Part shown: one piece after another, positions 15,896 through 41,168 of the stretch
Numbering within the stretch: the first letter of the stretch is position 1
How the letters are laid out: every line of letters starts with the position of its first letter
Sequence record: OR352956.1
From: Escherichia phage AV126
DNA: 64,000 nt
Direction: 5' to 3' (one strand)
Made by a program: the position numbers and the translations under genes
The notes under the pieces: model-generated
Databases searched by the model: none
Told to the model about the DNA's origin: nothing
What the model saw: only the letters and a program-made list of their open reading frames with translations

Positions 15896-16843
15896 CTACA
15901 AACTTTCAATAACCTGGCGTCGCAACTCGTTTGCATCTGCCAGATTATAATGTGTTCGAACATGTTCAGCCAAGAACAAGCCACGATCTTCCCGATAATT
16001 TGGATTGCGAAGAAGCTTAACAATTTCGTAATGCCATTCTGCTTTATTCTCTGCGTAAGCAACAGCGCGAGCATCTACAGGGTTAAAATAAGGTAATACC
16101 TTAGAACAAACAATTGGAATACCTTTTGCTCCAGCTTCCAGGATTTTGAGATTGCTTTTACAATTATTAAAATCATTATCTACCAAAGGAGCTATAGCAA
16201 TAGCATGACTTTCGTAAACACTCATGTAATTATCTAAATCTTTTACAGCGGCTTTATATTTGGCATTTGGTAAATTTCTGCGAATCTTAATCCACTCTTG
16301 TCCCGTGATGCTTTGTGATGCTTCATATCCCGCAATAGTAAGAAGTTCATCATCGAAAGTATTAGAGACTAGTCGTAAGTCTGGTTCGTGACTAGCACCG
16401 CCAGCCCATACAACAGGGGTACCGGATGAACGATCATTTGACAAAGTGAATTGTCCGCTATCAAAAGGAAGTGCATTTCGGATCACAACAACATTCCTAT
16501 TTAAGTGACGGATCTTATATGCCAAATATTCCGTAGTCACAATAACCACATCAGCAAGCTTAACCATAGCTACAATAGCATGAGTGTTTGACTCGTATAG
16601 ACTTGCTAAATAATGTTCTGGATTAAGTTGGTAAAAATCATCTAAGTCTACAACAACCTTAACACCTTGACGTTTCAAAGATAAAACGTATTCTGCACCT
16701 TTAGAGTGGATACGGTTAAACACAACAACATCTTTCTTAGGTTGAATATTATTGTTGTTAAATGGTATAACAATACGATGATAGTCACAACCGCTGTGAG
16801 GTTTTGCATCAATTTTTAGTTTAGACCATTTTTTATTTGACAT
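15896..16843 (-). CDS. glycosyltransferase, GT-B fold, paralog
   Basis: 315 aa; SNLKILEAGAKGIPIVCS; collinear similarity to 14944-15888. Confidence 0.5.
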   Translation of the reverse strand: MSNKKWSKLKIDAKPHSGCDYHRIVIPFNNNNIQPKKDVVVFNRIHSKGAEYVLSLKRQGVKVVVDLDDFYQLNPEHYLASLYESNTHAIVAMVKLADVVIVTTEYLAYKIRHLNRNVVVIRNALPFDSGQFTLSNDRSSGTPVVWAGGASHEPDLRLVSNTFDDELLTIAGYEASQSITGQEWIKIRRNLPNAKYKAAVKDLDNYMSVYESHAIAIAPLVDNDFNNCKSNLKILEAGAKGIPIVCSKVLPYFNPVDARAVAYAENKAEWHYEIVKLLRNPNYREDRGLFLAEHVRTHYNLADANELRRQVIESL

Positions 16844-17516
16844 GTGCTAGTGCCTCCTCATAGGAAATTCGGATTTTCCCATTTTTAATATCCTCTAAAG
16901 ATGCTTTATATTCTTCCCAGTTAATCCCAATAGCAGCCTCTTTCTCTTCTTTTGTCAGGTTAGCAAAAGGCATAGGATTGTTTCCAAAAACATCGTCTGG
17001 GTGGATATAAGCCATGATACGAAGTGGACAAGGTGTTGCCTGAATACCATGATTCAAACCAGCAGCTTGCAAACGGTGTCCCCATTCAGCATCTTCAAAA
17101 CCATAACCGTGAGTGTAAGGACGGAAATAACCCATCTTCTCAACAACGGAACGAGAATACATTGCAAATTGACACATTGCAAGTTCCCAGAGAATAACTT
17201 CTCCTTTGCTTCCAACAACTTTATCTTTGAAATACTCCGGCATACCAAAGAAATCCCATCCTCCAGAGACAGCTTGATCTACAAAGTATGTTTCCCATCC
17301 CTCCATGACTGGGTAGCAATCATCGTCAAAAATAAACCAATAATCATAACCTTCTTCATAAAACTGGTGCATAAGTTCATTCCTGGCATAAGCTACACCT
17401 TTACGATCTGGATCGTTGAATACTCGAAAATCTGCACGTGGATCTGTTACAAGGTAGTCTTTAAGTGGACGGACACCTACAGTGATAACACCCACTCCGA
17501 TTTTAATATTTTCCAT
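16833..17516 (-). CDS. glycosyltransferase, GT-A fold (family 2-like)
   Basis: 227 aa; DxD-type FIFDDDCYP and GYGFEDAEWGHRL resembling GT2 motif. Confidence 0.55.
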   Translation of the reverse strand: MENIKIGVGVITVGVRPLKDYLVTDPRADFRVFNDPDRKGVAYARNELMHQFYEEGYDYWFIFDDDCYPVMEGWETYFVDQAVSGGWDFFGMPEYFKDKVVGSKGEVILWELAMCQFAMYSRSVVEKMGYFRPYTHGYGFEDAEWGHRLQAAGLNHGIQATPCPLRIMAYIHPDDVFGNNPMPFANLTKEEKEAAIGINWEEYKASLEDIKNGKIRISYEEALAHVK

Positions 17517-17524
17517 TTTCTCTC

Positions 17525-18088
17525 CTAAATAGTTTTACTGTGATCGTGACAGTGTAATAAATGATGTATAGACCGTTGAGGATTTGTTTGACCTAATCTG
17601 TAAATGTGAAACAGATACATTCCCCGCATCAATCCTAACCTCTTTCCTTTTTCATGTAAAGTGCGAGAGAAAATTAAGTCGAATTGGATAGATTTTTCTT
17701 CGAAAGGAATTTCGTTCCACAACGATTTTCTAAAAAGCAAAAAGAAACCTGCCAGAGGTGTTCCGAAAGGAACTTCTTCAACACTCACTTTATGATATTC
17801 TCTTGCAATCTTAGCATATTCTATATGGTTTAGAATATCTGGATCATCGTTAATTTGGTTAGAGAAAAGCTGATAACCACTACCTAACCTGTTACAAGTT
17901 GCACCTATTACATCAAAAGGTGGGTTTGAAATAACAAGCTCTTCAAGCATAGATGGTTGATCAGGCAGGAGGAACATTGTATCGGTATCTCTTAAGCACA
18001 CCCAACTATCATCTGGAAGAACGGCAATAGCTTCATTGATAGCCTTGCCGATATTTCCTGTCAGATAGGGAGTAATATAATAAATCAT
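17525..18088 (-). CDS. putative GT-A-like glycosyltransferase
   Basis: 187 aa; CLRDTDTMF DxD-like motif; adjacent to GT cluster. Confidence 0.35.
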   Translation of the reverse strand: MIYYITPYLTGNIGKAINEAIAVLPDDSWVCLRDTDTMFLLPDQPSMLEELVISNPPFDVIGATCNRLGSGYQLFSNQINDDPDILNHIEYAKIAREYHKVSVEEVPFGTPLAGFFLLFRKSLWNEIPFEEKSIQFDLIFSRTLHEKGKRLGLMRGMYLFHIYRLGQTNPQRSIHHLLHCHDHSKTI

Positions 18089-18789: not shown

Positions 18790-19311
18790 TTAACTCCCCT
18801 TTGGTAGATAGAAACCATGCACTTTATCTCGATAAACAAGACGCATATCACGCTCCCAGTGTGTCCTTATATTCCGTTTCTTGAAGTATAGAGCACCTTT
18901 AGTAACATCTAAAACAGACCGCAATTCAGGAAAATGTTTCTCTAAATAAAGTAAACGTTCCGCTATTGCTTTTGCTTCCTGCCACTTATCTTTTTCTGTT
19001 ACGTTAAAAGTTTTCGCATATGAGAATTGCCCTTTCTGGAACAAGACTCCTCTGACTGTGTTAGGGAAGTATGTATCATTTCTTCTGTTGATTACTACAT
19101 TCCCAACGGCATTCATTCCTTTTTTACCCAGACCTCGACCTTCTGCGTAAATTGCACAAGCTAATAGAATTTTATCATTATATTGCTTTGTACATTTGTG
19201 AACTACTTTAGCAGTTTTTACGTTTGCAGCTTCGGCTTTCGCCACAACAGGTGTAAATGTAAAAGCAGTTAAGGATAGTAACGCAACTGTTACAAAGTTT
19301 TTTATCAGCAA
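18790..19311 (-). CDS. secreted cell-wall hydrolase, SleB/Hydrolase_2-like
   Basis: 173 aa; N-terminal signal peptide; AIYAEGRG...GMNAVGNVVINR motif; TTG start with RBS AAAAGGAGG. Confidence 0.6.
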   Translation of the reverse strand: MLIKNFVTVALLSLTAFTFTPVVAKAEAANVKTAKVVHKCTKQYNDKILLACAIYAEGRGLGKKGMNAVGNVVINRRNDTYFPNTVRGVLFQKGQFSYAKTFNVTEKDKWQEAKAIAERLLYLEKHFPELRSVLDVTKGALYFKKRNIRTHWERDMRLVYRDKVHGFYLPKGS

Positions 19312-19363
19312 ATTTTGCCTCCTTTTTAAGTTAACGAACTTCTAGTATAACACGATAGAGGCT

Positions 19364-19383
19364 TTATTGCAAGAGGGGGATTT
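19364..19383 (-). terminator. terminator-like hairpin after terD
   Basis: GAGGGGGA-gaaa-TCCCCCTC; no strong U tract. Confidence 0.35.
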
Positions 19384-19410
19384 CTCCCCCTCAAAATCAT
19401 TTGTTAATTA

Positions 19411-20013
19411 TTATGGACATTCATACCATTCTTTTTTACCACCGAAGGCCATCACCACATCGCAAATATCCAGACCAGCTTTACCTACACCATATGCTTT
19501 CAGTTTCCATTCCCCATCTTCACGAACCAAGGAAGCCACGTGGCAGATTGTGTTGCCAGCTACTTCAGGAGCTAGGAAGTCAAAATCCAGAATTTCCACA
19601 TTGCGCTCGGAGTCGAAGATTTTAAGCATACCTTCAGAAGCATGACCAAAACGTTTCAGACCTGTATCATCATCAATGGTCAGAACAAAGGCAATCTCTT
19701 GTGCATCAGGAGAGATTTTAGCCAGAGTAATATCAATCTGCTCCATGCTGCCAGTCCCATCACGAACATCGTCACCAGCGAAGGTAGAACGTTCAGGATC
19801 AAACTTGTTAGCATAGCAAACCAGATGACGTGCAGACAGCATTTCAGGATTGCCAGCGGCATTGTGACGACAAACCAGTGCACTTACATCCAGATCCAGT
19901 TTAGAATCAGATTTCCAAGAGAATTCCAGGCGCAGTTCTTTCAGAGCCGGAGCAACTTTCTTCAGGGAAATTTTTTCGCTAGAGCCTTTTTTCAGGGAAA
20001 TTTTATCATTCAT
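19411..20013 (-). CDS. terD: TerD-family stress protein
   Basis: 200 aa; DLDVSAL, GDDVRDGTGS, IDITL, EIAFVLTI, DGEWKLKAYG track E. coli TerD. Confidence 0.8.
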   Translation of the reverse strand: MNDKISLKKGSSEKISLKKVAPALKELRLEFSWKSDSKLDLDVSALVCRHNAAGNPEMLSARHLVCYANKFDPERSTFAGDDVRDGTGSMEQIDITLAKISPDAQEIAFVLTIDDDTGLKRFGHASEGMLKIFDSERNVEILDFDFLAPEVAGNTICHVASLVREDGEWKLKAYGVGKAGLDICDVVMAFGGKKEWYECP

Positions 20014-20028
20014 CTTTTGTCTCCTCTA

Positions 20029-20298
20029 TTATTTAAGTGTAATACCAGTTACAGTCAATTCTACTTCCAAAAGCTTAGATGTGTTTTGGATTGCTACTAA
20101 TTGTGCATGATGGTTTAGTTCTACAGCAGAATAATCATTTTCCCCATCATCTACTTTTAAATAAACAATAACTTCACTAAGGTCTAAACCATTTTCGTCA
20201 AATGCATTTTCATAGACGAAAGTATCTCCTACATCCAAATCTTTAATGGTAAGGCATCGTTTATTTACTTTTTGCTCATCAATTTCGAAGTTTAACAC
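20029..20298 (-). CDS. hypothetical protein, paralog family A
   Basis: 89 aa; LDVGDTFVY...TVTGITLK similar to 21320-21598 product. Confidence 0.45.
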   Translation of the reverse strand: MLNFEIDEQKVNKRCLTIKDLDVGDTFVYENAFDENGLDLSEVIVYLKVDDGENDYSAVELNHHAQLVAIQNTSKLLEVELTVTGITLK

Positions 20299-20527
20299 TT
20301 CTTCCTCCTAATGTTATCTCCGGTTTGTATATACGAAGAATTATAGCATTTTCATTTTCTTTGTCAACCCATTCTTCATAATCGGGCCATACATGAATCT
20401 CTACTCTACTTACAATATTTTCCATCCGCACAGTCCCAATGAAATATTCTTTGAGACTGCGCATAATGAAAGCTTCTCTCTCGCGCCAATAATTTTCTAC
20501 GACTTGAGAGGCAAGCTCGTCGATCAT
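20279..20527 (-). CDS. hypothetical protein
   Basis: 82-aa ORF, ATGA-type overlap with upstream gene. Confidence 0.4.
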   Translation of the reverse strand: MIDELASQVVENYWREREAFIMRSLKEYFIGTVRMENIVSRVEIHVWPDYEEWVDKENENAIILRIYKPEITLGGRSVKLRN

Positions 20528-21318
20528 TTTTTAGCACCTACCTTAACAACCCACTCTCCGAACTCTTCAGATAAGAGTTTGTCATAAAGCTCTGAATCTG
20601 TCAAGTCTAAATCTTTAATGCCAATAAAACCAACATTGTCATAAGCATTTGCCAGTTCTTTCAGGAAGCTGAACTTCTCATTACCAACGCCAACCATGAA
20701 CCAATAGATAGGCTTATTCTTATTCTCTTCAATAAGACGACGAACAGCACTAGGATCACCATTCTCACCATCTGTCTGGAAGAATACAACACCAGGAGTA
20801 ACGTCAGCACCTGGTTCAGATACAGCTACAACTTTTTCACGCTCTACAGATACTGTTTCAGTTTTACCCAGCAGACGATTAAAGAAGCCTTTCTTTGGAG
20901 CCTCCTCTTGTACCACTTGTTTAGTGGTAACATATTTGGTAACAGTGCCAAAATACTCATCGTAGATATCTGCCATTACAGGGGCGTAATTTGTTCCACC
21001 TCCGATACGAACATTACGCATACATTTACCAACATAGTCATCGTAAACGTCTGCTGTTGCTGGAGTAAGCTCTTGAGAACTCGTATTGAAGGCCCACATG
21101 TCAATTTGTTCATTATCGTCGAACAGCATACCAAAAGGAAGCAGTTTGCCTACAAAATCACTCACTACCCCACGAGTATATAGACCATGCATACTACCAG
21201 AAATATCTAGAGCACATGCTACACGAAGAACAATCTTACCTTCATTCAGGTTCTTATTCTTTTTCAGAGAGAAAGCAAGGTTTTCTTGACGTTTTTTCAG
21301 GCTGATTTTCTCGGACAT
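20524..21318 (-). CDS. von Willebrand factor A domain protein (TerY-like)
   Basis: 264 aa; MIDAS DISGSM, GGGTNYAP, TDGENGD; N-terminal ISLKK like TerD. Confidence 0.65.
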   Translation of the reverse strand: MSEKISLKKRQENLAFSLKKNKNLNEGKIVLRVACALDISGSMHGLYTRGVVSDFVGKLLPFGMLFDDNEQIDMWAFNTSSQELTPATADVYDDYVGKCMRNVRIGGGTNYAPVMADIYDEYFGTVTKYVTTKQVVQEEAPKKGFFNRLLGKTETVSVEREKVVAVSEPGADVTPGVVFFQTDGENGDPSAVRRLIEENKNKPIYWFMVGVGNEKFSFLKELANAYDNVGFIGIKDLDLTDSELYDKLLSEEFGEWVVKVGAKK

Positions 21319-21319
21319 A

Positions 21320-21598
21320 TTATTTCTCCTTCTTAAGTGTAATATTGGTAACTTCTAAATCTACTTCCACCATATTTGTATCTGGTGGGATGCAATGAGT
21401 ATAGCCTCGTTGTGCTAGTGATCCATTAATACAGATCGCACTGTTTGTGGAATTTTTAATGAACACCAAGTTACGGTAGGTATCCAACCCTGCGTCTTCA
21501 TAGGCATCATAATACATGAATGTGTCCCCTATGCCAAGGTCTTCGAAAGCAATAGGTAAATCCTGACACTTTTCTTCTTGAATATTGAATCTAAACAC
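21320..21598 (-). CDS. hypothetical protein, paralog family A
   Basis: Probable GTG start after RBS GAGGAGG; LGIGDTFMY...EVTNITLK; track ORF extended to 21664. Confidence 0.4.
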   Translation of the reverse strand: MFRFNIQEEKCQDLPIAFEDLGIGDTFMYYDAYEDAGLDTYRNLVFIKNSTNSAICINGSLAQRGYTHCIPPDTNMVEVDLEVTNITLKKEK

Positions 21599-22154
21599 GC
21601 ATACCTCCTCTACCAATTTTGAAGCCCAAATCGTAAGCTTCCTTAGTGATCTTTTGTAACTCACTTATAGGAAGTGTTACAAGAGGATCATCTTCTTCAA
21701 TTTCCATCTTGTCATCTTCTGTTTCAATGAGAGTATTATGCACTTTGTGATAAGGGTTGTCAACACGTTTAAACTTATTCTTTTCTGTGCTGAAAAAACA
21801 ATCTGGATCTTCTTCACCATCACCCCAACCTTGGTTAGGATCTCCGTCAGATTGTTCTGTAGGGATTTCACCTGTAAAATACTCTTCCAGCACCATAGCG
21901 ATACCGTCCCTTGGATTCGAGGAATGCATTAAATCACAAACCTTACCCCAATCCATAGCCCATTCGAACCGTTCACGAACGCCATTTTCATTCTCCTTTC
22001 CAGAGAAAACACAACCATAACTATCATAGTTGCCATACATCTCTTCAATAACAACACCATCCTTCAAAAGAAAGAGATAGCAAGGTGATCCGTCGAAAGA
22101 AGTAGAAAGGGCAGCTTTGCCCGATTCCTTACACAAAAAGCTAAAACAACCCAT
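21591..22154 (-). CDS. hypothetical protein
   Basis: 187-aa ORF, acidic C-terminal half. Confidence 0.45.
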   Translation of the reverse strand: MGCFSFLCKESGKAALSTSFDGSPCYLFLLKDGVVIEEMYGNYDSYGCVFSGKENENGVRERFEWAMDWGKVCDLMHSSNPRDGIAMVLEEYFTGEIPTEQSDGDPNQGWGDGEEDPDCFFSTEKNKFKRVDNPYHKVHNTLIETEDDKMEIEEDDPLVTLPISELQKITKEAYDLGFKIGRGGMRV

Positions 22155-22351
22155 TACAAACCCTCCTTCAGATTATCAAGAGCTACAGTGGTTTCACAAA
22201 ATTCTCCATATGCTTTATGATGTTCTAGAAAAGCTTCAGGTCCACCCCAATCATTATCGTGTGTATTCCAACCATCAATAAAAGCATCTTCAATGATTGT
22301 GATCAGTTCCTGTCGAGTCAACGTAATGGTATCAGGTTTTGGATTATGCAT
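22154..22351 (-). CDS. hypothetical small protein
   Basis: 65-aa ORF. Confidence 0.4.
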   Translation of the reverse strand: MHNPKPDTITLTRQELITIIEDAFIDGWNTHDNDWGGPEAFLEHHKAYGEFCETTVALDNLKEGL

Positions 22352-22517
22352 CTTCTTTCTCCTCTAAAATATGAAACCCATAGCTACAATAGTCCTGAAA
22401 GGTTTCGTGTGCAAGATCTTCTATATCCTCTTGAGACATATCATCTTCAATTTCGATATCCACAACCTCATTGCATCCACACCAAGCAGTTTCAATATTC
22501 ACTCGTAAAGTTTTCAT
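22344..22517 (-). CDS. hypothetical small protein
   Basis: 57-aa ORF not in track; ATGA overlap with upstream stop. Confidence 0.3.
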   Translation of the reverse strand: MKTLRVNIETAWCGCNEVVDIEIEDDMSQEDIEDLAHETFQDYCSYGFHILEEKEDA

Positions 22518-22720
22518 TCTTCTTCCTCATTAAATTCCACATCAGAAATAACTTTAAATCTACCAAAGTTACGACAACCTTCATAGATATATCCATCACG
22601 ACAAGCTGCAAAAATATCTGGAGTTTGTAGCTGGGTCATTGGGGCAAAGCGTTTCTCTTCGTCATAACGAACACCTATTTCTCCAGCTTGTTCGTCAAGC
22701 ATGTATACACGGATTCTCAT
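22514..22720 (-). CDS. hypothetical small protein
   Basis: 68-aa ORF. Confidence 0.4.
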   Translation of the reverse strand: MRIRVYMLDEQAGEIGVRYDEEKRFAPMTQLQTPDIFAACRDGYIYEGCRNFGRFKVISDVEFNEEEE

Positions 22721-23829
22721 TTACCCAACCCCTTCTTAACAGCGTCAACCATCCCATCTTCGAGAGATTGAACTTCATTGATGTAATCAACACGGGCAGC
22801 ACGGGCTTCCGTATTGATGCGGTTAGTTTCTTCCAACATTTTAACCAAGTTTTCCTGATCGTGACGCAGAGTTTCAATATCCAACACTTGACGGTTAGCC
22901 AGTGCTGCTGCTTCGATCTGATTCTGTGTGGCAAGATCGCTACCCAGTTTAATTGCCAGGTTAAATTCATCAAGAACGTTATTCTGTGTCTCTGCGGCTT
23001 TCATTTGACGTAAGCTTTCAATATACATTGAGAAGTTAGCAGAGTAAGCAGGAATAACATTATTTACTATGTTACGCGCAGATCGCATTAAGCTTGCAGA
23101 AACTTTTTGCATACCTTGCACACGTGGTCCCATTTGGACACACAGTAGGCGCAATGCTTTTAAATCCGCAATACGAATCTCCAGAAGATCCAAGGTATCT
23201 CGGATCGCTTGTCGCTGTTCTACCGCATCTTCTGGAAGAGCAGCCAAAGCTTGTTCTTCTTTTTCATAGGTCGCTGTTAGAAGCTGCATATCTCGGTTCA
23301 AACTTGCAGCATATTGTCCAATAGCTTGATGTAGCTTTTCAAGGTATACCAAAGAATCTTCTTCTTTGCGAATATCCATTTGAAGGTTCTTTACCAACTC
23401 TTCAATACGGTTATTAACATTATCAAACTCCCCAAACAGGTCTTCTTTCATACCCATAACTTTTTTAATGAGTTTAGTAATACCCTTGCTTTGTTTAATA
23501 GAGTTTGGATCAAGTTGTTTTGCCTGTTTAATCAAAGCTGTGAGTCGTTCACTCATCTGATCGCCTTGATTACTACGTTGATGTTTTAATACCTCAGCAT
23601 TCAAGGAACGCAAGGTTGTTCCTGCCTCTGCCCCAATCTCTTCGATCTCTTGTCGGGTCATAGAAGGCAAAACTGGAACTTCTTGCGGTGCCGCTGGTGC
23701 ATAAACAGGACTGGCATCTAACACGCTTGGAGCGAATACAGATTTACTTGCATCTGTTGTTGCAGCGAATACACTCATTTCAGACTTCTTCTGACCACCA
23801 GTAGCTGCTTTTAAAAATGGACTTGTCAT
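22717..23829 (-). CDS. TelA-like (toxic anion resistance family) protein, putative
   Basis: 370 aa, mostly helical/coiled-coil; assignment rests on size and Ter neighbourhood, not a verified motif. Confidence 0.4.
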   Translation of the reverse strand: MTSPFLKAATGGQKKSEMSVFAATTDASKSVFAPSVLDASPVYAPAAPQEVPVLPSMTRQEIEEIGAEAGTTLRSLNAEVLKHQRSNQGDQMSERLTALIKQAKQLDPNSIKQSKGITKLIKKVMGMKEDLFGEFDNVNNRIEELVKNLQMDIRKEEDSLVYLEKLHQAIGQYAASLNRDMQLLTATYEKEEQALAALPEDAVEQRQAIRDTLDLLEIRIADLKALRLLCVQMGPRVQGMQKVSASLMRSARNIVNNVIPAYSANFSMYIESLRQMKAAETQNNVLDEFNLAIKLGSDLATQNQIEAAALANRQVLDIETLRHDQENLVKMLEETNRINTEARAARVDYINEVQSLEDGMVDAVKKGLGK

Positions 23830-24416
23830 TCTTCATTCTCCTCTTCTGCATCTCTTATATATGGTGAAACACCGTACTCTTTAGCTACTTTAACCCAATC
23901 ATCCCATTTATATAACCATAATTTTCCTTCAGTTCCTTCTTTATCTGATTTCAACCACATGTTAGGTTGCTTGCCTGGGTACATGCGATTAGGTTTACGA
24001 TTATAACCTCTAACACATCTTGTCGCAAACCTATCTACCAGAACAAGAACATATTTATATTCGTGGTTCAACGGCTCTTTGGAAGTGGCTTTAGGATTAG
24101 CCCCTAATTCTGCTGCCAGTTTTTGCCAATGAGCACCGTGCCTACTAAACTTACCCATACAACCATCAATAGCATGAGCAATTTCGTGCTTCATTGTATC
24201 CACGATCATATCTCTTGTGGAGTTCTTATGCAAGTGCCAATTTACAACAACAATTTTATCTCGGTAGTTGCACCAACCGAAAGAGTTATTCACTTTGTTT
24301 CTAACACAAGCTTTATATCCTGCTTCACGTAACATGTTGTAGTAAACAGGAAAATCTTCTTTTATTTCCTGCATCACTTCCCACCACAAGAGTTGCAAGT
24401 CTCTCTCGGTATGCAT
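23826..24416 (-). CDS. SprT-like zinc metalloprotease
   Basis: 196 aa; HEIAH (HExxH) preceded by WCNYRDKIVVVNW. Confidence 0.5.
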   Translation of the reverse strand: MHTERDLQLLWWEVMQEIKEDFPVYYNMLREAGYKACVRNKVNNSFGWCNYRDKIVVVNWHLHKNSTRDMIVDTMKHEIAHAIDGCMGKFSRHGAHWQKLAAELGANPKATSKEPLNHEYKYVLVLVDRFATRCVRGYNRKPNRMYPGKQPNMWLKSDKEGTEGKLWLYKWDDWVKVAKEYGVSPYIRDAEEENEE

Positions 24417-24419
24417 AAC

Positions 24420-25013
24420 TTACACCTTAAAAGCGAAATGCGTGGTCGTGGCTTCAAAATCAGGGCCAGATAAACTTGCACTGAAATCTGAAATATTTGT
24501 AATTAAAAAGCTTTTATGCATACCTAACACAGCCACGCTTTCAATATCTTCTACTAACATTTCAATCATGTTAGAAACATGGCTGAACGTATAGTTTTGT
24601 TTTTTGATGGTGTAGAAAGAAAGACTCCCACCTGCTGTATAAGATACCTCTTCAAAATCTTTAATCGTATATTGTGTGCCATCAGTAAAGAAAATGGTAG
24701 CTTTATTAGTAGCACGTTTCTTGTTTTTTGGTCCTTTTTTACGTTTACTGCGAGTAGGCAAACCGTTTGGAAATACCGTAGCTACAAATTCTTCAGGAGA
24801 AACCTCCTTACCGAAATCATAACCGTAAGAAACAGCGTCTATAAACTCGTCGTCTTCATTTTTAAAATAATGAAAATAGGGCCAATTTGAGAGATTATCG
24901 AGCATCTTATGCTCATCCACAGCAGAGAACGTATCCCTCAAAGCACGTGTGATTTGCAAAGCATTAGGCAAACTTTTAACACCTGTAATGGAAGTACGAA
25001 TAGAAATTGTCAT
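24420..25013 (-). CDS. hypothetical protein
   Basis: 197-aa ORF. Confidence 0.45.
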   Translation of the reverse strand: MTISIRTSITGVKSLPNALQITRALRDTFSAVDEHKMLDNLSNWPYFHYFKNEDDEFIDAVSYGYDFGKEVSPEEFVATVFPNGLPTRSKRKKGPKNKKRATNKATIFFTDGTQYTIKDFEEVSYTAGGSLSFYTIKKQNYTFSHVSNMIEMLVEDIESVAVLGMHKSFLITNISDFSASLSGPDFEATTTHFAFKV

Positions 25014-25027
25014 TGTTTTTCTCCTTA

Positions 25028-25465
25028 TTAACGTCGCTTGCTACGAGATGAACTCTTTTTACTTAAAGGGCTATTGTAAGATTTACGAGTTGTATAGCTA
25101 CTATTTGTTTTAAAAGTTTGTCTCGGCTTTTCATAAGTTTTTATCTCTTGTTTAGGCTTACCATAAAAATTAGTTTTCGGCTTAGGTGTATTATAATGCT
25201 TATTAATAATCGTTCTGTTATCGTTATAATCTCCACTGCTACGATTACTACCGCCACTCATCATATGCCCTAACAACATACCTGTAGCAAACTCACCAAC
25301 ACCGCTACTACTAGAACCGCCACCATTGTTGATAATAGTTGTATCTCCGTCAGATCCTTGTTGAGCGTATTGTTGAGGAGGTTGTTGGTATTGTGCAGGA
25401 TTTGTTTCATCCTCGCAAGCTGTTAAAAAGATACAACCAATTAAAATCAGGGCTAGTTTTTTCAT
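25028..25465 (-). CDS. lipoprotein
   Basis: Start re-set to MKKLALILIGCIFLTAC (lipobox LTAC) after RBS GAGGAAAG; Gln/Pro/Gly-rich mature part. Confidence 0.55.
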   Translation of the reverse strand: MKKLALILIGCIFLTACEDETNPAQYQQPPQQYAQQGSDGDTTIINNGGGSSSSGVGEFATGMLLGHMMSGGSNRSSGDYNDNRTIINKHYNTPKPKTNFYGKPKQEIKTYEKPRQTFKTNSSYTTRKSYNSPLSKKSSSRSKRR

Positions 25466-25652
25466 ATTTGCTTTCCTCGTTTTGGCTATTAATACATCTG
25501 TGTTTGAAATCTCCAGAGAAGCAATAAAGTTGCTCTCCATCTCGGTATAAACTCACTTTACTGCCGTTGATTACGCTTGTCAATACAAAAATTACAACAA
25601 ACAACCCTATTGCAAAACAGATATTTTCAAACACAACCAACAAGTATTTCAT
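25407..25652 (-). CDS. small membrane protein
   Basis: 81 aa, hydrophobic N-terminal helix; ATGA overlap with upstream stop. Confidence 0.4.
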   Translation of the reverse strand: MKYLLVVFENICFAIGLFVVIFVLTSVINGSKVSLYRDGEQLYCFSGDFKHRCINSQNEESKYEKTSPDFNWLYLFNSLRG

Positions 25653-25999
25653 TTTAAAAATACCTCATCATCAGTTTCATTATCCCAGAAGAACAAATCC
25701 CAACCATTTGGATCGTTCCATTTGGCTGCTGGAGAAGTCCATATTTGTTCGATATCAATATTCAAAACTTCACCGTTTCGTTTTGAAACAGCTTTAGTTA
25801 ATTCCCAACGAGATACAGGCTCTACTTCTCCTGAACCACTTCCACAACAAGCTACAACATTAGGAGGCAAATTAATTGGATCTTTGGTCACAATCATAAC
25901 GCTTACCCCAGGGTAAACTTTTGAAAGATAGTCTGAAATGTAATCCACATCACCAGATAAATCCCAAACAAGTTCTTGAATTTCATCAAAATTATTCAT
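25649..25999 (-). CDS. hypothetical protein
   Basis: 116-aa ORF, RBS AGGAGAG. Confidence 0.5.
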   Translation of the reverse strand: MNNFDEIQELVWDLSGDVDYISDYLSKVYPGVSVMIVTKDPINLPPNVVACCGSGSGEVEPVSRWELTKAVSKRNGEVLNIDIEQIWTSPAAKWNDPNGWDLFFWDNETDDEVFLK

Positions 26000-26010
26000 A
26001 AGTCTCTCCT

Positions 26011-26035
26011 ATAAAATAGCCTCCCGAAGGAGGCT
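26011..26035 (-). terminator. hairpin after terC
   Basis: AGCCTCC-ttcg-GGAGGCT then ATTTTAT on minus strand. Confidence 0.5.
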
Positions 26036-26041
26036 CATCTA

Positions 26042-27016
26042 TTAAACAGCAGCTTCTTCTTTTTCAGGGAAGATAAAGCTTGCAATAACACCAAGAGCTA
26101 ATGTGCCTAGAACAATCATCAGACTTACGTTAGGGGAAATATCATGCGGGAGGAATGACCATTTGGCATGAAGTGTTTCACCGAACGGGTGATACATAAG
26201 TTTAGCACCAACAAACACCAGAACCACAGCAACAGCTTTCTCTAAGTGAACCAGATATTTCACAGCTACACTTAACACAAAGAAAAGTGCACGTAAACCA
26301 AGAACAGCCATCAGCATTGCAGAATAAACTAGCAGAGGTTCTTGTGTCACCCCGATCACAGCCGGAACTGAATCAAAAGAGAAGACAATATCTGTAAGCT
26401 CAATAACAAACACACAAAGAAGAGCAGGAGTTGCATATTTAATACCATTCTTAATGGTAATGAACTTTTCACCATCCAGTGCATTGTGCACAGGCAGAAC
26501 TTTACCTACTAAACGAACAGCCCAATGCTTAGAGTAATCAATATCCTCTTCTTCGTCACCACCTTTGATGATAGCCACGGCAGACCAGGCTACAATCAAA
26601 CCGAACAACACTTGGACCGACCAATGAAGGTTAAACAAAGCGGTGCCTGCTGCAACAAAAATACCTCGGAAGACAATGGCTCCTGCAATCCCCCAAAGTA
26701 AAATCTTATGTTGGAGATGTGTGCTCTTAATTCCAAAGCTTGCAAAAATTGCCATGAACACCATCAGGTTATCTACAGAAAGACTCTTTTCCAACACATA
26801 ACCACTTAGGAAAAGCGCGGCAAACTCTTTACCATGTTCTACCCAAATGAATGCGTAATATCCTAAAGCTAAAGCAATCCAAAAAACAGACCAAAGCAAA
26901 GCAGATTTAATTCCAATTTCTTTATTCTCTTTATGACCAAAGAAATCGATACCAATAGACAATGCCAAAATACCAACTAAAACAACTACATCAATAATTG
27001 GGAAACCGAGTTGCAT
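26042..27016 (-). CDS. terC: TerC-family integral membrane protein
   Basis: 324 aa, multi-pass; EKSLSVDNLMVF and SFDSVPAVIGVT motifs. Confidence 0.8.
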   Translation of the reverse strand: MQLGFPIIDVVVLVGILALSIGIDFFGHKENKEIGIKSALLWSVFWIALALGYYAFIWVEHGKEFAALFLSGYVLEKSLSVDNLMVFMAIFASFGIKSTHLQHKILLWGIAGAIVFRGIFVAAGTALFNLHWSVQVLFGLIVAWSAVAIIKGGDEEEDIDYSKHWAVRLVGKVLPVHNALDGEKFITIKNGIKYATPALLCVFVIELTDIVFSFDSVPAVIGVTQEPLLVYSAMLMAVLGLRALFFVLSVAVKYLVHLEKAVAVVLVFVGAKLMYHPFGETLHAKWSFLPHDISPNVSLMIVLGTLALGVIASFIFPEKEEAAV

Positions 27017-27033
27017 TCTTTTCTCCTCTCTTT

Positions 27034-27092
27034 GCGGGGAACTATTCCCCGCTTCATGTGATATATCTTACTCTTTTTAAGAACTATGTCAA
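27034..27092 (-). promoter_or_regulatory. promoter plus 5' hairpin cassette driving terC
   Basis: Minus strand TTGACA, 16 nt, TAAGAT, then GCGGGGAA-tag-TTCCCCGC and RBS; same design as island cassettes. Confidence 0.6.
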
Positions 27093-27095
27093 CAC

Positions 27096-27317
27096 TTATT
27101 TTGTTGAATGAGAGGAAAAGATTCCTCGTAATACAGCCAGAATAAACGAAACACAAACCACGGTCCAGAAGGTTACTGGGACAGTGATATCTGCATGACC
27201 CATAACTTCAGCAACATAGTTGTAAGCCAGCAACAGTAACCAAGCTGGAATCAAACTAAGCATAAAAGCAATAACAAAAAAGCTTACCACTGCAACAATA
27301 CCTGCAAAAACACCCAT
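27096..27317 (-). CDS. small membrane protein
   Basis: 73 aa, two hydrophobic helices. Confidence 0.45.
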   Translation of the reverse strand: MGVFAGIVAVVSFFVIAFMLSLIPAWLLLLAYNYVAEVMGHADITVPVTFWTVVCVSFILAVLRGIFSSHSTK

Positions 27318-27329
27318 ACTAATCTCCTC

Positions 27330-27815
27330 TTAAAGTTTATAAATAGTCACATCGTGACCAGCTTTTACTAAAGTTTCTTTGATCATGACTTCAATGATAG
27401 CCCAATTACCTCCAGCATGACCTGCACCTATCATAGGTAGACCAATCTTATGTGCTGGCTGATCTCCTTTATCGTAATTGTGTAAGTCCATTGCCATAGC
27501 TGCAAGAGCATCATACAGCGCATCATAATCTAGTTGACGACCTTTACTATTGTATCCATAACGATACTGTCCATAAAGGTTGTATACCATAGGGTTAGGA
27601 TAATCTTCTGGTTCCCCTAAACTAAAAGAACCAAGCTTTTTCTGGTTTCCTGCTCCTGTAGCTAAATCTGCTTCGTATGCATATGGAAACGCATATTTTA
27701 TTTGTGGGGCAATGCCTGCCCCCATATTACACATACAGTTGCAACAATGAGCAATAACAGTTACTTCACCTGCTTTAGCGGCATCAATAAGATTACCTGT
27801 TTTCATTTTAAGCAT
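27330..27815 (-). CDS. macro-domain protein (ADP-ribose binding/hydrolase)
   Basis: Start re-set to ATG after RBS AAGGAG; VIAHCCNCMCNMGAGIA resembles macro VNAAN...GGGV motif. Confidence 0.7.
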   Translation of the reverse strand: MLKMKTGNLIDAAKAGEVTVIAHCCNCMCNMGAGIAPQIKYAFPYAYEADLATGAGNQKKLGSFSLGEPEDYPNPMVYNLYGQYRYGYNSKGRQLDYDALYDALAAMAMDLHNYDKGDQPAHKIGLPMIGAGHAGGNWAIIEVMIKETLVKAGHDVTIYKL

Positions 27816-27828
27816 TTTTAGCTCCTTA

Positions 27829-28656
27829 TTACAGAATGTGTTGTTTTGTGTAACGATCCAAGAATTCAAAGTTTTCAGCATACTTTGCAATCCGATTGTA
27901 GCCTTCAGCTAAACAGCCGAAGAAAAGTTGTTCCACATAGTAGTGTGGCAATTGGCTAAGAATGATTTTGAAGTCTTCATGATTTTGGCCCATAAGATAC
28001 TTAATAGGACGAACAAGGCACTGTGCATCACGTTCTTCATTAATCATTTTAACAAACGCTTCTGGTGTATTAATGTAGTTAAAATTCAGTTTAGCTTCAG
28101 TATCTGCTTGATTACCTTCGTATTTTGCAAAATACAAGAAGTAAACATCATTTTTAACTTGATTTTCATCAAGAATCTCAATCAGTTTGTCTTCATGCGT
28201 TCCGGTGATATTTACATCATCAATGAACACCAACTTCTTATCACCCCAGAATTCTTTGTTGCAGTAGAATGTATCCCCATCAATAAGTTTCTTACGACTA
28301 GCTTTATCCAAGAAGCCATAATCGTTAATATAACTAACTTTACGATGAATAATATCCAGTTCTGCTGAACGACCTTGATCATATTGTGCTTGCAACATAT
28401 TAAAGTAATTAATAAAATGATCTGTCATCATTGTTGCAGCATTATGCACATGGTTATAAGGAGAAGGAATGATAACAAATTGTTCCCCAATATGTTTCAT
28501 TGCCACTTGAGCAAAAAACTGAAGTGCCAATTCTTTACCCATACGACGCGCAGCTTGGTTACTGCCAAATTTCAATTTTGAATAATCTTTGATATCAAAA
28601 GTAGCAGTTTCCAGGTCATCAAATTTATTTGCAAAAATTTGAGTTTGATTACGCAT
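27829..28656 (-). CDS. phosphoribosyltransferase-domain protein
   Basis: 275 aa; KKLVFIDDVNITGTHE matches type I PRTase PRPP-binding motif. Confidence 0.55.
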   Translation of the reverse strand: MRNQTQIFANKFDDLETATFDIKDYSKLKFGSNQAARRMGKELALQFFAQVAMKHIGEQFVIIPSPYNHVHNAATMMTDHFINYFNMLQAQYDQGRSAELDIIHRKVSYINDYGFLDKASRKKLIDGDTFYCNKEFWGDKKLVFIDDVNITGTHEDKLIEILDENQVKNDVYFLYFAKYEGNQADTEAKLNFNYINTPEAFVKMINEERDAQCLVRPIKYLMGQNHEDFKIILSQLPHYYVEQLFFGCLAEGYNRIAKYAENFEFLDRYTKQHIL

Positions 28657-29305
28657 TTACAATTTCTCCTCTTTTAAGTTTCTCTAGTAAGTCGTTAGGG
28701 TTCTTAATATGACAGAAGTTAATCCCTATGTCAACACATTTTCCATCAAATTCTTCGCTGTCCCCAACATGTAAAATCTCTTCAGCCTTCAAAGGAATGC
28801 TTGAATATGTGGCGGTCCTAACAAAGAATCTAGGATCTGGTTTACACAACAGATGTTCGTCTGAAAAATGCATAAATTCAAAACAATTCCAACTGTCAAA
28901 CATACAAGCACGACGCAAAATATCCCCAGATATAAAATTAGTATTGCTTTTAATACTAAGATCATATTTACCAGACAAGTATAGCAAACAAACTGGCAAA
29001 TCTAAAGCAATATGTGGAGGAAATTTAAGAAACCATTGCTCACACTCAAAACGCATTTGTGCAGATTCTACAGGGGTTAAACCTATCTTTCTTCCCAACA
29101 TATTCCATGCATATGCTACACCTTCTGCACACCCATTTAGTGCAGCATTATCCATAATTTCTTTGGCATCTTTATAGGCTTCTTTTGCGGCACGTTCAGA
29201 CATTCTACCATATGTGGCAATAGTGTGCGTACGTGCATCTGCATAGTTTTGATTGGCAGAAATAAGAGTATTCCATACATCAAAAGAGATATGTTTTATT
29301 GTCAT
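28649..29305 (-). CDS. HAD-superfamily hydrolase (putative)
   Basis: Start re-set to MTIKHISFDVWNTL (HAD motif I-like); C-terminal HVGDSEEFD (motif IV-like). Confidence 0.5.
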   Translation of the reverse strand: MTIKHISFDVWNTLISANQNYADARTHTIATYGRMSERAAKEAYKDAKEIMDNAALNGCAEGVAYAWNMLGRKIGLTPVESAQMRFECEQWFLKFPPHIALDLPVCLLYLSGKYDLSIKSNTNFISGDILRRACMFDSWNCFEFMHFSDEHLLCKPDPRFFVRTATYSSIPLKAEEILHVGDSEEFDGKCVDIGINFCHIKNPNDLLEKLKRGEIVNA

Positions 29306-29306
29306 A

Positions 29307-29912
29307 TTAGGCCCACCATGCATCAAGATTTAAGTTACTATCTACCACAACTTGTTCTATGTGGTAGCCTTTTATCTGTATCCCACTGTTTAAGAGCATA
29401 TCATATGCTTCATTGAAACGCAACTTATCTTCTGCGGAATATAAGCGAGCATTATAAAATCGGTAATCAATTTCTTCAACATTAGAAGAAATACGGAAGA
29501 AGTTTGTTTCTACTTCAGGATCACTTGCTGAAGTCTTAATGTGAACTTCTCCATAATTTTCTTTACTTAGATCCATGAAAAGAACACAGGCAACATGTTT
29601 AAACATTCGTTCCAGTTTGTAACGAACAACATTGAAACCTGCATTCTCAAGTTTCTCTACACATTGCAACATTAACGTAGTGTCGAGATCGCTTTGATAC
29701 TTTGTTAACATACGATCACGTTGAGACTTTGTATCCCGATGTAAATCAATTGTTGTGCATTTGGCACCAATGATCTTAGCTGCTTTCATCAACTCTTCAG
29801 AACTAACGTTAGATAAAGTAAGATGAAAATGGGCTTTCCACACTTTTTTAGCAGGAATGCCAAAAGATTTATCCCCGCTATTTGGCATGTTAACTACTAC
29901 ACTATGTTGCAT
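29307..29912 (-). CDS. hypothetical protein
   Basis: 201-aa ORF; HFHLTL is a possible H-x-T-x motif, unverified. Confidence 0.45.
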   Translation of the reverse strand: MQHSVVVNMPNSGDKSFGIPAKKVWKAHFHLTLSNVSSEELMKAAKIIGAKCTTIDLHRDTKSQRDRMLTKYQSDLDTTLMLQCVEKLENAGFNVVRYKLERMFKHVACVLFMDLSKENYGEVHIKTSASDPEVETNFFRISSNVEEIDYRFYNARLYSAEDKLRFNEAYDMLLNSGIQIKGYHIEQVVVDSNLNLDAWWA

Positions 29913-29927
29913 TACTTATCTCCTCAC

Positions 29928-41107: not shown

Positions 41108-41137
41108 TTGTTTTCTCCTTTTGTTTGGTAGGAGTTG

Positions 41138-41165
41138 ATCTTAACAAGATTAAAAAGTATGTCAA
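41138..41165 (-). promoter_or_regulatory. sigma70-type promoter for minus-strand block
   Basis: TTGACA, 16 nt, TAAGAT on minus strand. Confidence 0.55.
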
Positions 41166-41168
41166 TAC

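Follow-up and report, generated by a model that had tools for sequence, protein, structure and literature searches.

A conserved Ter-type gene cluster in Escherichia phage AV126 and its relatives

Genes of the cluster

The window analysed is a 64,000-nt stretch of Escherichia phage AV126 (OR352956.1), a Phapecoctavirus (phAPEC8-like E. coli myophage), with 97.7% identity to vB_EcoM_Schickermooser. Positions 19411–27016, running exactly from the stop codon of TerD to the start codon of TerC, hold a cluster of Ter-related genes, all on the minus strand, as the sequence-only reading had stated (Table 1). TerD, the TerF-like vWA protein, TelA, the SprT-like protein and TerC (five of five) score above the curated Pfam cut-offs against which family calls were judged, confirming the placement of the 200-aa and 324-aa proteins in the TerD and TerC families. 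TelA, previously considered the weakest link of the set, is among its strongest calls. The genes within these bounds stand, but the extent does not: upstream, the cluster reaches to about 29305 or 29912 and takes in a Macro domain, a PRTase_3, a HAD hydrolase and a 201-aa protein. It borders the anaerobic ribonucleotide reductase genes (nrdDG). Small ORFs without assigned function are scattered in number among the cluster genes.

Table 1. Features of the cluster and its flanks, in window positions
Feature	Position	Strand	Evidence or remark
SleB-like (Hydrolase_2) cell-wall hydrolase	18790–19311	-	Pfam PF07486, 64 bits
TerD-domain protein, 200 aa	19411–20013	-	Pfam PF02342, 98.9 bits vs cut-off 25.3, E 3e-28
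89-aa protein (o89)	20029–20298	-	phrog_11278; paralogue of o92
82-aa protein	20279–20527	-	phrog_22387
vWA, TerF C-terminal type, 264 aa	20524–21318	-	Pfam PF10138, 129.2 bits vs cut-off 29.4, E 3e-37
92-aa protein (o92)	21320–21598	-	phrog_11278; immediately upstream of vWA in 3/3 lineages
187-aa protein	21591–22154	-	phrog_14928; also in phi92, 76% identity
Three small ORFs, 65 (o65), 57 and 68 aa	22154–22720	-	
TelA, 370 aa	22717–23829	-	Pfam PF05816, 116.6 bits vs cut-off 30, E 1.7e-33
SprT-like zinc metalloprotease	23826–24416	-	Pfam PF10263, 36.7 bits vs cut-off 25.6; H77EIAH
197-aa protein (o197)	24420–25013	-	phrog_27550
Predicted lipoprotein	25028–25465	-	Lipobox LTAC, read from sequence (MKKLALILIGCIFLTAC...)
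81-aa single-pass membrane protein	25407–25652	-	
116-aa protein	25649–25999	-	
Terminator-like GC hairpin	26018–26035	-	AGCCTCCTTCGGGAGGCT, then ATTTTAT; 7 nt past terC stop codon
TerC, 324 aa	26042–27016	-	Pfam PF03741, 138.3 bits vs cut-off 27.8, E 3e-40
terC early-type promoter cassette	27017–27092	-	-35, -10, 5'-UTR hairpin, ribosome-binding site
73-aa two-pass membrane protein	27096–27317	-	phrog_16065; common to phi92
Macro domain, TARG1/DarG/SCO6735 type, 157 aa	27330–27803	-	PDB 5E3B, E 3e-12
PRTase_3 (Pfam 'PRTase ComF-like')	27829–28656	-	Pfam PF15610, E 1.5e-41
HAD-superfamily hydrolase	28649–29305	-	Weak Pfam and NCBIfam HAD-IA matches
201-aa protein, tandem ferredoxin-like fold	29307–29912	-	Phapecoctavirus only

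TerD matches the Klebsiella TerD structures (PDB 2KXT/2KXV, E 1.5e-15). Its D40-L-D-V-S motif is conserved, while the second Ca motif has partly degenerated (GDDVRDGTGSME versus GDNRTGEGDGDDE), with three acidic residues lost. A perfect 12/12 sigma70 consensus (TTGACA-16-TGnTATAAT) is located ahead of o89–TerD at 20367–20340. The MIDAS metal-binding motif by which the vWA protein had been recognized is intact (D38-x-S-x-S, GGGT109 and QTD183, giving T109 and D183). The TelA match spans profile positions 13–326 of 332, and homologues of this protein are found in 222 phage records. TerC scores 319 bits against a cut-off of 246 on NCBIfam TIGR03718 (TerC/Alx), which places it in the TerC/Alx 'metal homeostasis' subfamily. 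Hydropathy predicts about nine membrane-spanning segments; the paired acidic intramembrane motifs are retained, and E76, D82, N83, E206, D209 and D215 are invariant.

The earlier calls of a SprT-like protease and a lipoprotein also hold, the first by its Pfam score and its H77EIAH motif, the second by direct reading of the lipobox. The predicted lipoprotein is Gly/Ser/Asn-rich with a basic C-terminus. The SleB-like hydrolase carries an N-terminal Sec signal peptide (…VVAKA/EA), likewise read from the sequence. Only two database homologues of o197 were found.

Upstream of terC, the Macro domain is matched by DarG models (PADLOC 2e-9, NCBIfam 4e-8) and falls slightly below the cut-off of Pfam Macro; no PADLOC model matches the Ter proteins. 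The AF2 model of PRTase_3 (pLDDT 93) has a core closest to 6-oxopurine PRTases, ComF and PyrR. The HAD protein is translationally coupled to the PRTase and has an unusual motif I, FDVWNTL; D9, S117, K155, D182 and D187 do not vary, nor does W11, which occupies the Asp+2 position. Because the Asp+2 general acid/base is thus missing, it is uncertain whether this protein acts as the phosphatase completing a nucleoside. The HAD–PRTase_3 pair recurs in two other phage contigs; in one of them, from a jumbo phage, the PRTase_3 homologue adjoins HAD and TerD/TerC. Membership of the 201-aa protein in the module is uncertain.

The terC transcription unit

The cassette ahead of terC comprises a -35 element TTGACA (27092–27087), a 16-nt spacer, a -10 element TAAGAT (27070–27065) and a 5'-UTR hairpin GCGGGGAATAGTTCCCCGC (27052–27034), followed by the ribosome-binding site. 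Eighteen cassettes on the plus strand of a gene island at 48627–58037 (48.6–58.0 kb) are of the same family, and these matching copies bear out the proposal that terC and the island genes share one type of promoter-hairpin cassette. On this basis, terC is probably expressed early. The promoter and 5'-hairpin architecture is also present in phi92 and 05F01, with different stem sequences, and hairpins equivalent to the terminator-like hairpin lie 3' of phi92 terC and of the 05F01 DUF475 gene. In three of three lineages, the TerC-clan gene is accompanied by a consensus promoter and by hairpins on both sides, one in the 5' region and one of terminator-like form.

Conservation among phages and relation to bacterial ter systems

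Three Stephanstirmvirinae lineages were compared: Phapecoctavirus, phi92 and Klebsiella phage 05F01. All three keep the order TerC-clan protein, lipoprotein, o197 C-terminal domain, TelA, o65, o92, vWA, TerD and SleB-like hydrolase, with TelA identity down to 40%; o65 directly follows TelA, and the hydrolase lies directly downstream of TerD, in each of them. In 05F01, DUF475, a relative from the same clan, takes the place of TerC, an argument that the module needs a membrane partner of TerC type. SprT, Macro and the 201-aa protein vary in presence between lineages, SprT and Macro being inconstant partners of Ter clusters; the SprT-like gene is an accessory found in 05F01 and missing from phi92. 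An unrelated 350-kb phage contig also holds TelA, vWA-TerF, TerC/DUF475, HAD, PRTase_3 and TerD together.

The conserved phage Ter set is genuine, but earlier annotations and discussions already cover it, for AV126-type and for other phages. At least 80% of the interval 19000–30000 is spanned by 62 phage records, mostly at 90–98% identity, and Ter genes are named in dozens of GenBank records. The relatives in GenBank (phAPEC8, ESCO5/13, ZCKP1, SF1-1, phi92, 05F01) show no substantive difference. Their labels ('tellurite resistance', 'TelA-like', 'TerD family', 'TerC', 'VWA', 'orotate PRTase', 'phosphatase', 'macro domain') have gaps, and in none of those seen is the PRTase_3–HAD pair placed in the Ter module. 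The ZCKP1 paper remarks on four tellurite genes. Phage Ter systems are the subject of Iyer et al. 2021, who suggest superinfection exclusion as their role. Among the papers searched, none described an experiment on any phage Ter gene.

Clusters with the same TerC–TerD–TerF(vWA)–TelA set, for which the same superinfection-exclusion hypothesis was put forward, occur in Acinetobacter phage ME3, Caulobacter jumbo phages, PhiPsa374 (Otagovirus), PhiKp34 and the RaK2/121Q group (Iyer et al. 2021; PMC8386662; PMC9796965). In ME3, PRTase and HAD enzymes for 'signal biosynthesis' accompany the cluster. TelA identity to these phages is 21–26%, indicating separate lineages. Unlike their clusters, the phapecoctavirus module has extra SprT, Macro, lipoprotein and SleB-like neighbours and an autonomous terC unit with its own promoter and terminator.

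Ter families co-occur in bacterial neighbourhoods too. The IncHI2 R478-type ter region consists of terZABCDEF with upstream terWXY and biosynthetic genes, and comparison with it reveals shared TerC, TerD, TerF-type vWA and a phosphoribosyltransferase/hydrolase side-module, although the PRTase family differs. Phage TerC is 47.8% identical to IncHI2 TerC over its full length and 32.7% to E. coli Alx, the vWA protein is 27% identical to that of TerF, and TerD is 25% identical, best to the TerX-like copy. In contrast to the five or more TerD paralogues of IncHI2, the phage has one; it is without TerB (none in the window by tblastn), TerW, ATP-grasp, HpcH lyase and the TerY/PP2C/kinase triad. TelA is part of the phage module, whereas terZABCDEF does not include it, and the phage genes stand behind phage early-type promoters. 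The description of a near-complete set thus applies to the TerC–TerD–TelA–vWA hub and not beyond it. The Phapecoctavirus module is almost certainly a reduced form of the bacterial Ter stress system, encoded by the phage.

A compact chromosomal TerD, TerC and TelA hub, similar in gene content, is the Bacillus subtilis yceCDEFGH operon, which encodes three TerD proteins, TerC/MeeF, YceG and TelA/YceH. It differs from the phage module in its several TerD copies, in having neither vWA nor PRTase_3, and in belonging to a cell-envelope stress regulon instead of a set of early genes.

Possible roles of the module

We estimate a probability of roughly 45% that the cluster is an autonomous Ter module for envelope and ion homeostasis in which terC is expressed early, shielding the infected cell from superinfection, colicins and premature lysis. 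The general idea of a phage envelope or ion-stress module had been raised before and agrees with the view of Iyer et al. 2021; its host-Ter mimicry part is unlikely as a main role. The membrane part is TerC, an inner-membrane protein of cation-transporter type, and the cytoplasmic parts are TerD, the TerF-type vWA protein and TelA. The lipoprotein, two small membrane proteins and the secreted SleB-like hydrolase are small envelope parts. The upstream PRTase_3–HAD pair and Macro are of a type for which synthesis of a nucleoside-like Ter ligand has been proposed.

It is unlikely that the module chiefly serves metal supply, with TerC and the metal-binding TerD and vWA proteins re-routing Mn, Zn or Ca to phage metalloenzymes or to the metal loading of periplasm-exported proteins such as the SleB-like hydrolase. 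The subfamily of TerC and its conserved acidic transmembrane residues fit such a role, as does the annotation of E. coli Alx as a Mn exporter. He and colleagues are said to have found in 2023 that Bacillus TerC homologues load metal onto secreted enzymes. The signal-peptide hydrolase adjoins TerD in all three lineages, but we know of no metal requirement of SleB-type hydrolases; the nrdDG genes border the cluster, but this may be mere genome layout. Metal supply also leaves unexplained why TelA, vWA and PRTase/HAD travel with TerC, and a search upstream of terC for a metal-sensing riboswitch found none. In favour of metal supply, deletion of terC in K. pneumoniae lowers Zn and Mn resistance; it also enlarges plaques (PMC12054061), and both effects speak for the envelope and ion-homeostasis module as well.

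Counter-defence appears less probable still. The module could interfere with host immunity by acting as a decoy for a host Ter system or by competing with it. Alternatively, PRTase_3, HAD and Macro might break down or mimic immune signals of nucleotide or ADP-ribose type and undo the ADP-ribosylation of DNA by DarT-type enzymes. In favour of this, Macro is of DarG/TARG1 type, Iyer et al. count Macro among the enzymes by which phages degrade such immune signals, and on another phage contig the HAD–PRTase_3 pair lies in a neighbourhood of RNA-repair, counter-defence type. However, Macro is missing from the Ter clusters of 05F01 and of the jumbo contig and may be an independent neighbour, and the functional motifs are retained, as expected of active Ter proteins and not of decoys. 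The terZABCDEF genes are present in 939–1024 of 5426 complete E. coli genomes (roughly 17–19%), a point for counter-defence, but absent from about 81%; in K-12, Alx is the only Ter relative seen, and at least 18 matching phage records give K-12 MG1655 as host. With so few hosts carrying ter, mimicking or neutralizing a host Ter response, as once suggested, is unlikely to be the main role.

Host-benefit cargo, that is, tellurite, xenobiotic or colicin resistance for a bacterium in a carrier or pseudolysogenic state, has been put forward by the authors of the ZCKP1 paper and by Iyer et al. We regard it as improbable: the ZCKP1 paper describes these phages as virulent myophages, the set has no TerB and none of the additional TerD paralogues that resistance operons carry, and the PhiPsa374 authors judged tellurium resistance unlikely for such partial sets. 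Chance neighbours without joint function would fit the interspersed small ORFs, the promoter and terminator of terC and the variable SprT, Macro and 201-aa genes, but are strongly disfavoured by four families kept together and in order across divergence to 40% identity and co-occurring in unrelated phages and in bacteria.

For the envelope and ion-homeostasis module, the frequency of E. coli without ter, together with the K-12 hosts, implies that it must work without a host ter operon, and it would thus act alone, without host Ter proteins. For this reading speak the gene order kept in the three lineages, the DUF475 of 05F01, the set on the 350-kb contig and the retained TerC and vWA motifs; against it weigh the degenerate second Ca motif of TerD, the HAD without its general acid/base, the inconstant Macro and SprT partners and the lack of a matching PADLOC model. 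Its mechanistic steps are hypotheses borrowed from bacterial Ter. Host RNA polymerase would transcribe terC at once from the cassette shared with the early gene island. The module would then adjust the inner membrane of the infected cell and its balance of divalent cations: TerC would move Mn/Zn/Ca-type cations, and TelA, vWA and TerD would form a metal-dependent assembly beneath the membrane, which the PRTase/HAD product may gate.

The classical superinfection-exclusion proteins, T4 Imm/Sp and T5 Llp, are early-expressed envelope proteins, a lipoprotein among them, with the role proposed here; they are single small proteins and not a multi-component Ter-type module. Bacterial ter clusters are reported to confer phage inhibition and colicin resistance (Whelan 1995, as cited in later papers). 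The pay-off of the phage module would be the counterpart of these plasmid phenotypes, phage inhibition and resistance to pore-forming colicins: the infected cell may withstand both the DNA that other phages inject and the pores of colicins, and may avoid premature membrane depolarization or lysis until the phage itself is due to lyse it.

Protein families of the Ter cluster

The cluster proposed in the sequence-only reading, 19411-27016, extends exactly from the TerD stop codon to the TerC start codon. In profile searches TerD, the vWA protein, TelA, the SprT-like protein and TerC each score above the Pfam curated cut-off, in agreement with their first assignment. TelA, regarded there as the weakest link, proves to be among the firmest calls, with a nearly full-length match at E 2e-33; a sequence search for a solved structure of TelA found none.

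TerD matches the PDB TerD structure 2KXT with E 1.5e-15. Compared with the Ca2+-binding motifs of Klebsiella TerD, DLDxS and GDN(R/L)TGEGDGDDE, the first motif is kept (D40LDVS) and the second reads GDDVRDGTGSME, which retains G, D, D/N, G, G and E and replaces three Asp residues by T, S and M. TerC has about nine hydrophobic segments and two repeated acidic intramembrane motifs (E76, D82, N83 and E206, D209, D215), whose residues are invariant among the phage, plasmid, Alx and DUF475 sequences compared. The vWA protein carries the metal-binding MIDAS motif DxSxS...T...D (D38-I-S-G-S, T109, D183), and the SprT-like protein the HExxH zinc site (H77EIAH). The latter scores 21 against the NCBIfam SprT equivalog (cut-off 175) and is therefore SprT-like rather than E. 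coli SprT. The lipoprotein, read from the sequence, stands on its MKK...LTAC lipobox.

The start of the lipoprotein gene overlaps by 58 nt the gene of an 81-aa single-pass membrane protein, an arrangement that resembles overlapping spanin pairs. We rejected a spanin assignment, since a holin/lysis cassette is absent nearby and the sizes are atypical. A homologue search with the 197-aa protein returned two near-identical sequences, too few for a useful alignment or model, and a relaxed Pfam scan of the nine ORFs without assigned function gave nothing credible.

Features of the Ter region and of the loci compared (window positions unless a phage locus is named)
Feature	Position	Strand	Profile score or description
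Glycosyltransferase genes (2-3)	16833-18088	-	Just downstream of the Ter cluster
SleB/Hydrolase_2 cell-wall hydrolase	18790-19311	-	Cleavable Sec-type signal peptide
TerD	stop 19411		PF02342, 98.9 bits (cut-off 25.3), E 3e-28; residues 5-179 on profile 3-177 of 187
89-aa protein	20029-20298	-	phrog_11278; precedes TerD
sigma70 promoter	20367-20340	-	Perfect 12/12, TG-extended -10; inside 82-aa ORF
vWA-TerF-like			PF10138, 129.2 bits (cut-off 29.4), E 3e-37
92-aa protein	21320-21598	-	phrog_11278; precedes vWA
TelA			PF05816, 116.6 bits (cut-off 30); profile positions 13-326 of 332
SprT-like			PF10263, 36.7 bits (cut-off 25.6), E 4e-9
197-aa protein	24420-25013
145-aa lipoprotein	25028-25465	-
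81-aa membrane protein	25407-25652	-
Terminator-like hairpin	26035-26018		3' of terC stop codon
TerC	start 27016		PF03741, 138.3 bits (cut-off 27.8), E 3e-40; NCBIfam TIGR03718 (TerC/Alx), 319 (cut-off 246)
terC cassette	27092-27017	-	TTGACA-16 nt-TAAGAT, 12 nt, hairpin GCGGGGAATAGTTCCCCGC, ribosome-binding site, ATG
Macro domain	27330-27803	-	TARG1/DarG/SCO6735 type
PRTase_3 (Pfam 'PRTase ComF-like')			PF15610, 143 bits (cut-off 28.7), E 1.5e-41
HAD hydrolase	28649-29305	-	Superfamily member
201-aa protein	29307-29912	-	Two PADLOC 'AbiEi' models, near full length, E 8e-13 and 1e-11
Strand switch	~41100-41250		Divergent consensus promoters (41165-41138 on -; + genes from 41222)
Island cassettes (18, tandemly spaced)	48627-58037	+	sigma70 consensus TTGACA-16/17-TAnnnT, GC-rich hairpin, ribosome-binding site, small ORF
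DUF475 gene, Klebsiella phage 05F01	L002 4531-5595		In TerC position
HAD relatives, other phage loci	L003 2455-3111; L004 7281-7994; L006 7345-8001
HAD-PRTase_3 pair, 198-kb contig	L006 7345-10562

The autonomous terC unit and conserved gene order

The promoter-hairpin cassette of terC shares its build and a near-identical sequence with those of the early-gene island at 48.6-58.0 kb, as had been proposed. In a whole-window scan, the 18 cassettes of this kind other than that of terC all lie in the island, on the plus strand and each 5' of a small ORF, and the terC cassette is the sole copy outside it. The island hairpins begin ~10-12 nt past the -10 element, and their stems vary by paired changes (GCGGGAA/TTCCCGC, GCGGCA/TGCCGC, GGGGCG/CGCCCC); the island cassettes match no Rfam family. 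Framed by its cassette and by a terminator-like hairpin, terC therefore looks self-contained and read by the host sigma70 polymerase. In phi92 (Justusliebigvirus) terC, and in Klebsiella phage 05F01 the DUF475 gene, likewise stand between a consensus promoter with a 5' hairpin and a GC hairpin, with a different stem sequence; this recurrence argues that the arrangement is selected. Expression of terC is presumably early; a literature search for Stephanstirmvirinae transcriptomics gave nothing usable. The perfect sigma70 promoter near TerD is located 42 nt 5' of the GTG start of the 89-aa gene.

Every gene between ~6 kb and 41 kb of the window is on the minus strand, and the strand switch is at the same place as the minimum of cumulative GC skew.

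By sequence, the source phage belongs to the genus Phapecoctavirus, subfamily Stephanstirmvirinae: over 11 kb, the cluster region shares 97.7% identity with Escherichia phage vB_EcoM_Schickermooser, and its identity to dozens of further phAPEC8-like myophages (~150 kb) is 95-97%. The window, phi92 and 05F01 share a fixed order of TerC-clan membrane protein, lipoprotein, 197-aa-type domain, TelA, 65-aa protein, 92-aa protein, vWA, TerD and secreted SleB-like hydrolase, with TelA 78% identical to that of the window in phi92 and 40% in 05F01. The 89-aa and 92-aa proteins are paralogues (33% identical), and the vWA-linked copy is kept in all three lineages, as is the adjacency of the SleB-like hydrolase to TerD. 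This hydrolase has no adjoining holin and is annotated as endolysin in some records. phi92 is without SprT. In 05F01 the place of TerC is taken by a DUF475 protein from the TerC clan, a like-for-like exchange within a conserved module.

A total of 222 phage records contain a TelA homologue. Those outside Stephanstirmvirinae, with 21-26% identity, include Caulobacter and Brevundimonas jumbo phages, PhiPsa374-like phages and the RaK2/121Q group. Four records with TelA 78-99% identical to that of the window (MG065650.1, MG065645.1, OP562383.1, OR584014.1) bear the names Campylobacter phage B15 and A145, Acinetobacter phage ABPW7 and Pseudomonas phage PsgM04F; their host labels look doubtful, because they group with E. 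coli phapecoctaviruses and justusliebigviruses. One of the glycosyltransferases downstream of the Ter cluster weakly matches a TET-associated glycosyltransferase family, and these enzymes may act in cell-surface or DNA modification.

Upstream genes and relation to bacterial Ter systems

Judged by its gene content, the Ter cluster extends upstream of terC, beyond the boundary first reported. Directly upstream are a 73-aa membrane protein, a Macro domain, PRTase_3 and an overlapping HAD-superfamily hydrolase. The PRPP loop of PRTase_3, FIDDVNITGTHE, is invariant, and its AF2 model (pLDDT 93) shows a type I PRTase core with a C-terminal helical domain. The nearest folds are 6-oxopurine PRTases (HGXPRT), ComF and PyrR, at a TM of about 0.4 only, and the GenBank label 'orotate PRTase' is unsupported.

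The HAD protein scores 19.5 bits against Pfam, under the cut-off of 26.4. Its nucleophile D9 and motifs II-IV (S117, K155, D182, D187) are invariant. Standard HAD phosphatases combine motifs II-IV with a motif I of the form DxDx(T/V), in which Asp+2 is the general acid/base; here motif I is FDVWNTL, with an invariant Trp at this position in four phage lineages of 29-48% identity. The protein may therefore not act as a simple phosphatase, and the invariant Trp suggests an atypical chemistry.

Iyer et al. (2021) assign PRTases and HAD phosphoesterases to the arm of Ter systems that makes the signal. A link of the PRTase_3/HAD pair to Ter is independently supported by gene order in a 350-kb phage contig, where a PRTase homologue (49% identical) occurs in the order TelA, vWA-TerF, ..., TerC/DUF475, HAD, PRTase_3, TerD. 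In a 198-kb metagenomic phage contig the pair occurs without Ter genes, in an RNA-repair type context with a DUF2828/DUF7788 protein, RNA ligase, 2H-type phosphoesterase, CCA-adding enzyme and Nudix protein, and is thus a unit able to serve more than one context. Phage 05F01 lacks the Macro-PRTase-HAD block at its Ter locus and encodes a PRTase_3 homologue outside the stretch examined of its 147-kb genome.

At 47.8% identity, phage TerC is closer to TerC of IncHI2 ter operons than to host Alx (32.7%), of which it is not a copy. Phage TerD best matches the TerX-like plasmid copy (25%), and the vWA protein matches the TerF C-terminus (27%). A tblastn search of the 64-kb window with IncHI2 Ter proteins found TerC, one TerD-domain gene and vWA only, and no TerB. 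The extra TerD paralogues, ATP-grasp, HpcH lyase and TerY-kinase-phosphatase triad of the plasmid region likewise have no counterpart in the window. The phage therefore has a TerC-TerD-TelA-vWA hub with a different, simpler enzyme pair. This hub, with or without enzymes of a nucleoside-like metabolite, is the association previously defined for Ter systems (Anantharaman, Iyer & Aravind 2012, as given in Iyer et al. 2021), and it is conserved here. The claim of a near-complete Ter set thus stands for the hub and falls for canonical terZABCDEF, in which TerB and several TerD paralogues (TerZ/A/D/E) accompany TerC. By this gene content, the phage cluster is not a tellurite-resistance operon.

terZABCDEF is present in ~17-19% of complete E. 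coli genomes (939-1024 of 5426), and K-12 MG1655 is the listed host in at least 18 matching phage records, which shows that the phage module is independent of a host ter operon. Mimicry of a host Ter response is unlikely to be its main role.

Proposed role of the module during infection

The Ter interpretation of the cluster is reasonable in outline and not new. Phapecoctavirus GenBank records carry the labels 'tellurite resistance', 'TelA-like', 'TerD family protein', 'Integral membrane protein TerC', 'VWA domain-containing protein' and 'macro domain-containing protein', and the phi92 record has similar Ter labels. The paper on the phapecoctavirus ZCKP1 noted four tellurite-resistance genes and suggested colicin resistance and superinfection protection. 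The PhiKp34 and PhiPsa374 papers describe the same four-gene set and cite phage inhibition and pore-forming colicin resistance by ter clusters. In K. pneumoniae, plaques become larger and Zn and Mn resistance falls when terC is lost (PMC12054061). Acinetobacter phage ME3 has a full Ter set including PRTase and HAD, and phage Ter systems have been proposed to help in competing with superinfecting phages (Iyer et al. 2021). A literature search turned up no phage ter gene that had been studied by experiment.

From the families, motifs, synteny and autonomous terC unit we infer a membrane- and cation-stabilising mechanism, to which as a whole we give a probability of about 0.45. TerC would be placed in the inner membrane at once by the phage. 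A TelA-vWA-TerD assembly would then be built, perhaps tuned by the PRTase/HAD product, and the membrane and cation balance of the infected cell would be held stable against further phage injection, colicins and premature depolarisation. A more specific version is tentative and rather unlikely to hold in full: a self-sufficient minimal Ter system in ter-less K-12, with immediate-early terC, in which a nucleoside-like ligand made by PRTase_3 and the atypical HAD gates TelA-vWA-TerD assembly under the membrane and seals the infected cell against phage injection and pore-forming colicins.

A phage role in metal supply, or in the metalation of exported proteins, is improbable; neither a manganese riboswitch nor another known RNA was found 5' of terC (gathering threshold, whole window; E<=1, 18.5-30.5 kb). 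Counter-defence is less probable still. The nearest relatives of the Macro domain are Streptomyces SCO6735, DarG and TARG1-type ADP-ribosyl hydrolases. It could reverse DarT-type DNA ADP-ribosylation in a DarG-like role, and Phapecoctavirus and phi92 are the only phages in which it accompanies PRTase_3-HAD. In a search against PADLOC-DB 2.0 two proteins only have a match, the Macro domain with the DarG model (2e-9) and the 201-aa protein with an 'AbiEi' model; TerD, vWA, TelA, TerC, PRTase and HAD have none. The 201-aa protein has a confident AF2 model with a tandem ferredoxin-like fold, without a specific structural relative, and invariant H28, H30, T32, H124 and K126; it may serve in anti-defence, either as an antitoxin-like protein or as an enzyme.

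Genes of the ter type reside on virulence plasmids and pathogenicity islands. Carriage as host-benefit cargo is very unlikely for the phage module. That the genes are chance neighbours is the least credible explanation.

A 2025 terC paper calls the function of the ter operon unclear. Since a virulent phage has retained the trimmed Ter set over a long divergence, the set must benefit it directly within one infection cycle. As the cluster has already been annotated and discussed, its value lies in follow-up experiments rather than in the observation. The Stephanstirmvirinae phages Bas60-62, members of the BASEL collection, grow on E. coli K-12, so deletion and expression experiments would be simple and could separate ion balance, membrane sealing and signalling. 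Because the module is compact and conserved and its phage group grows on K-12, Ter function could be tested directly. If the self-sufficient minimal system were confirmed, the phage would be the simplest tractable model for Ter function and would represent a new class of multi-component superinfection-exclusion machinery.
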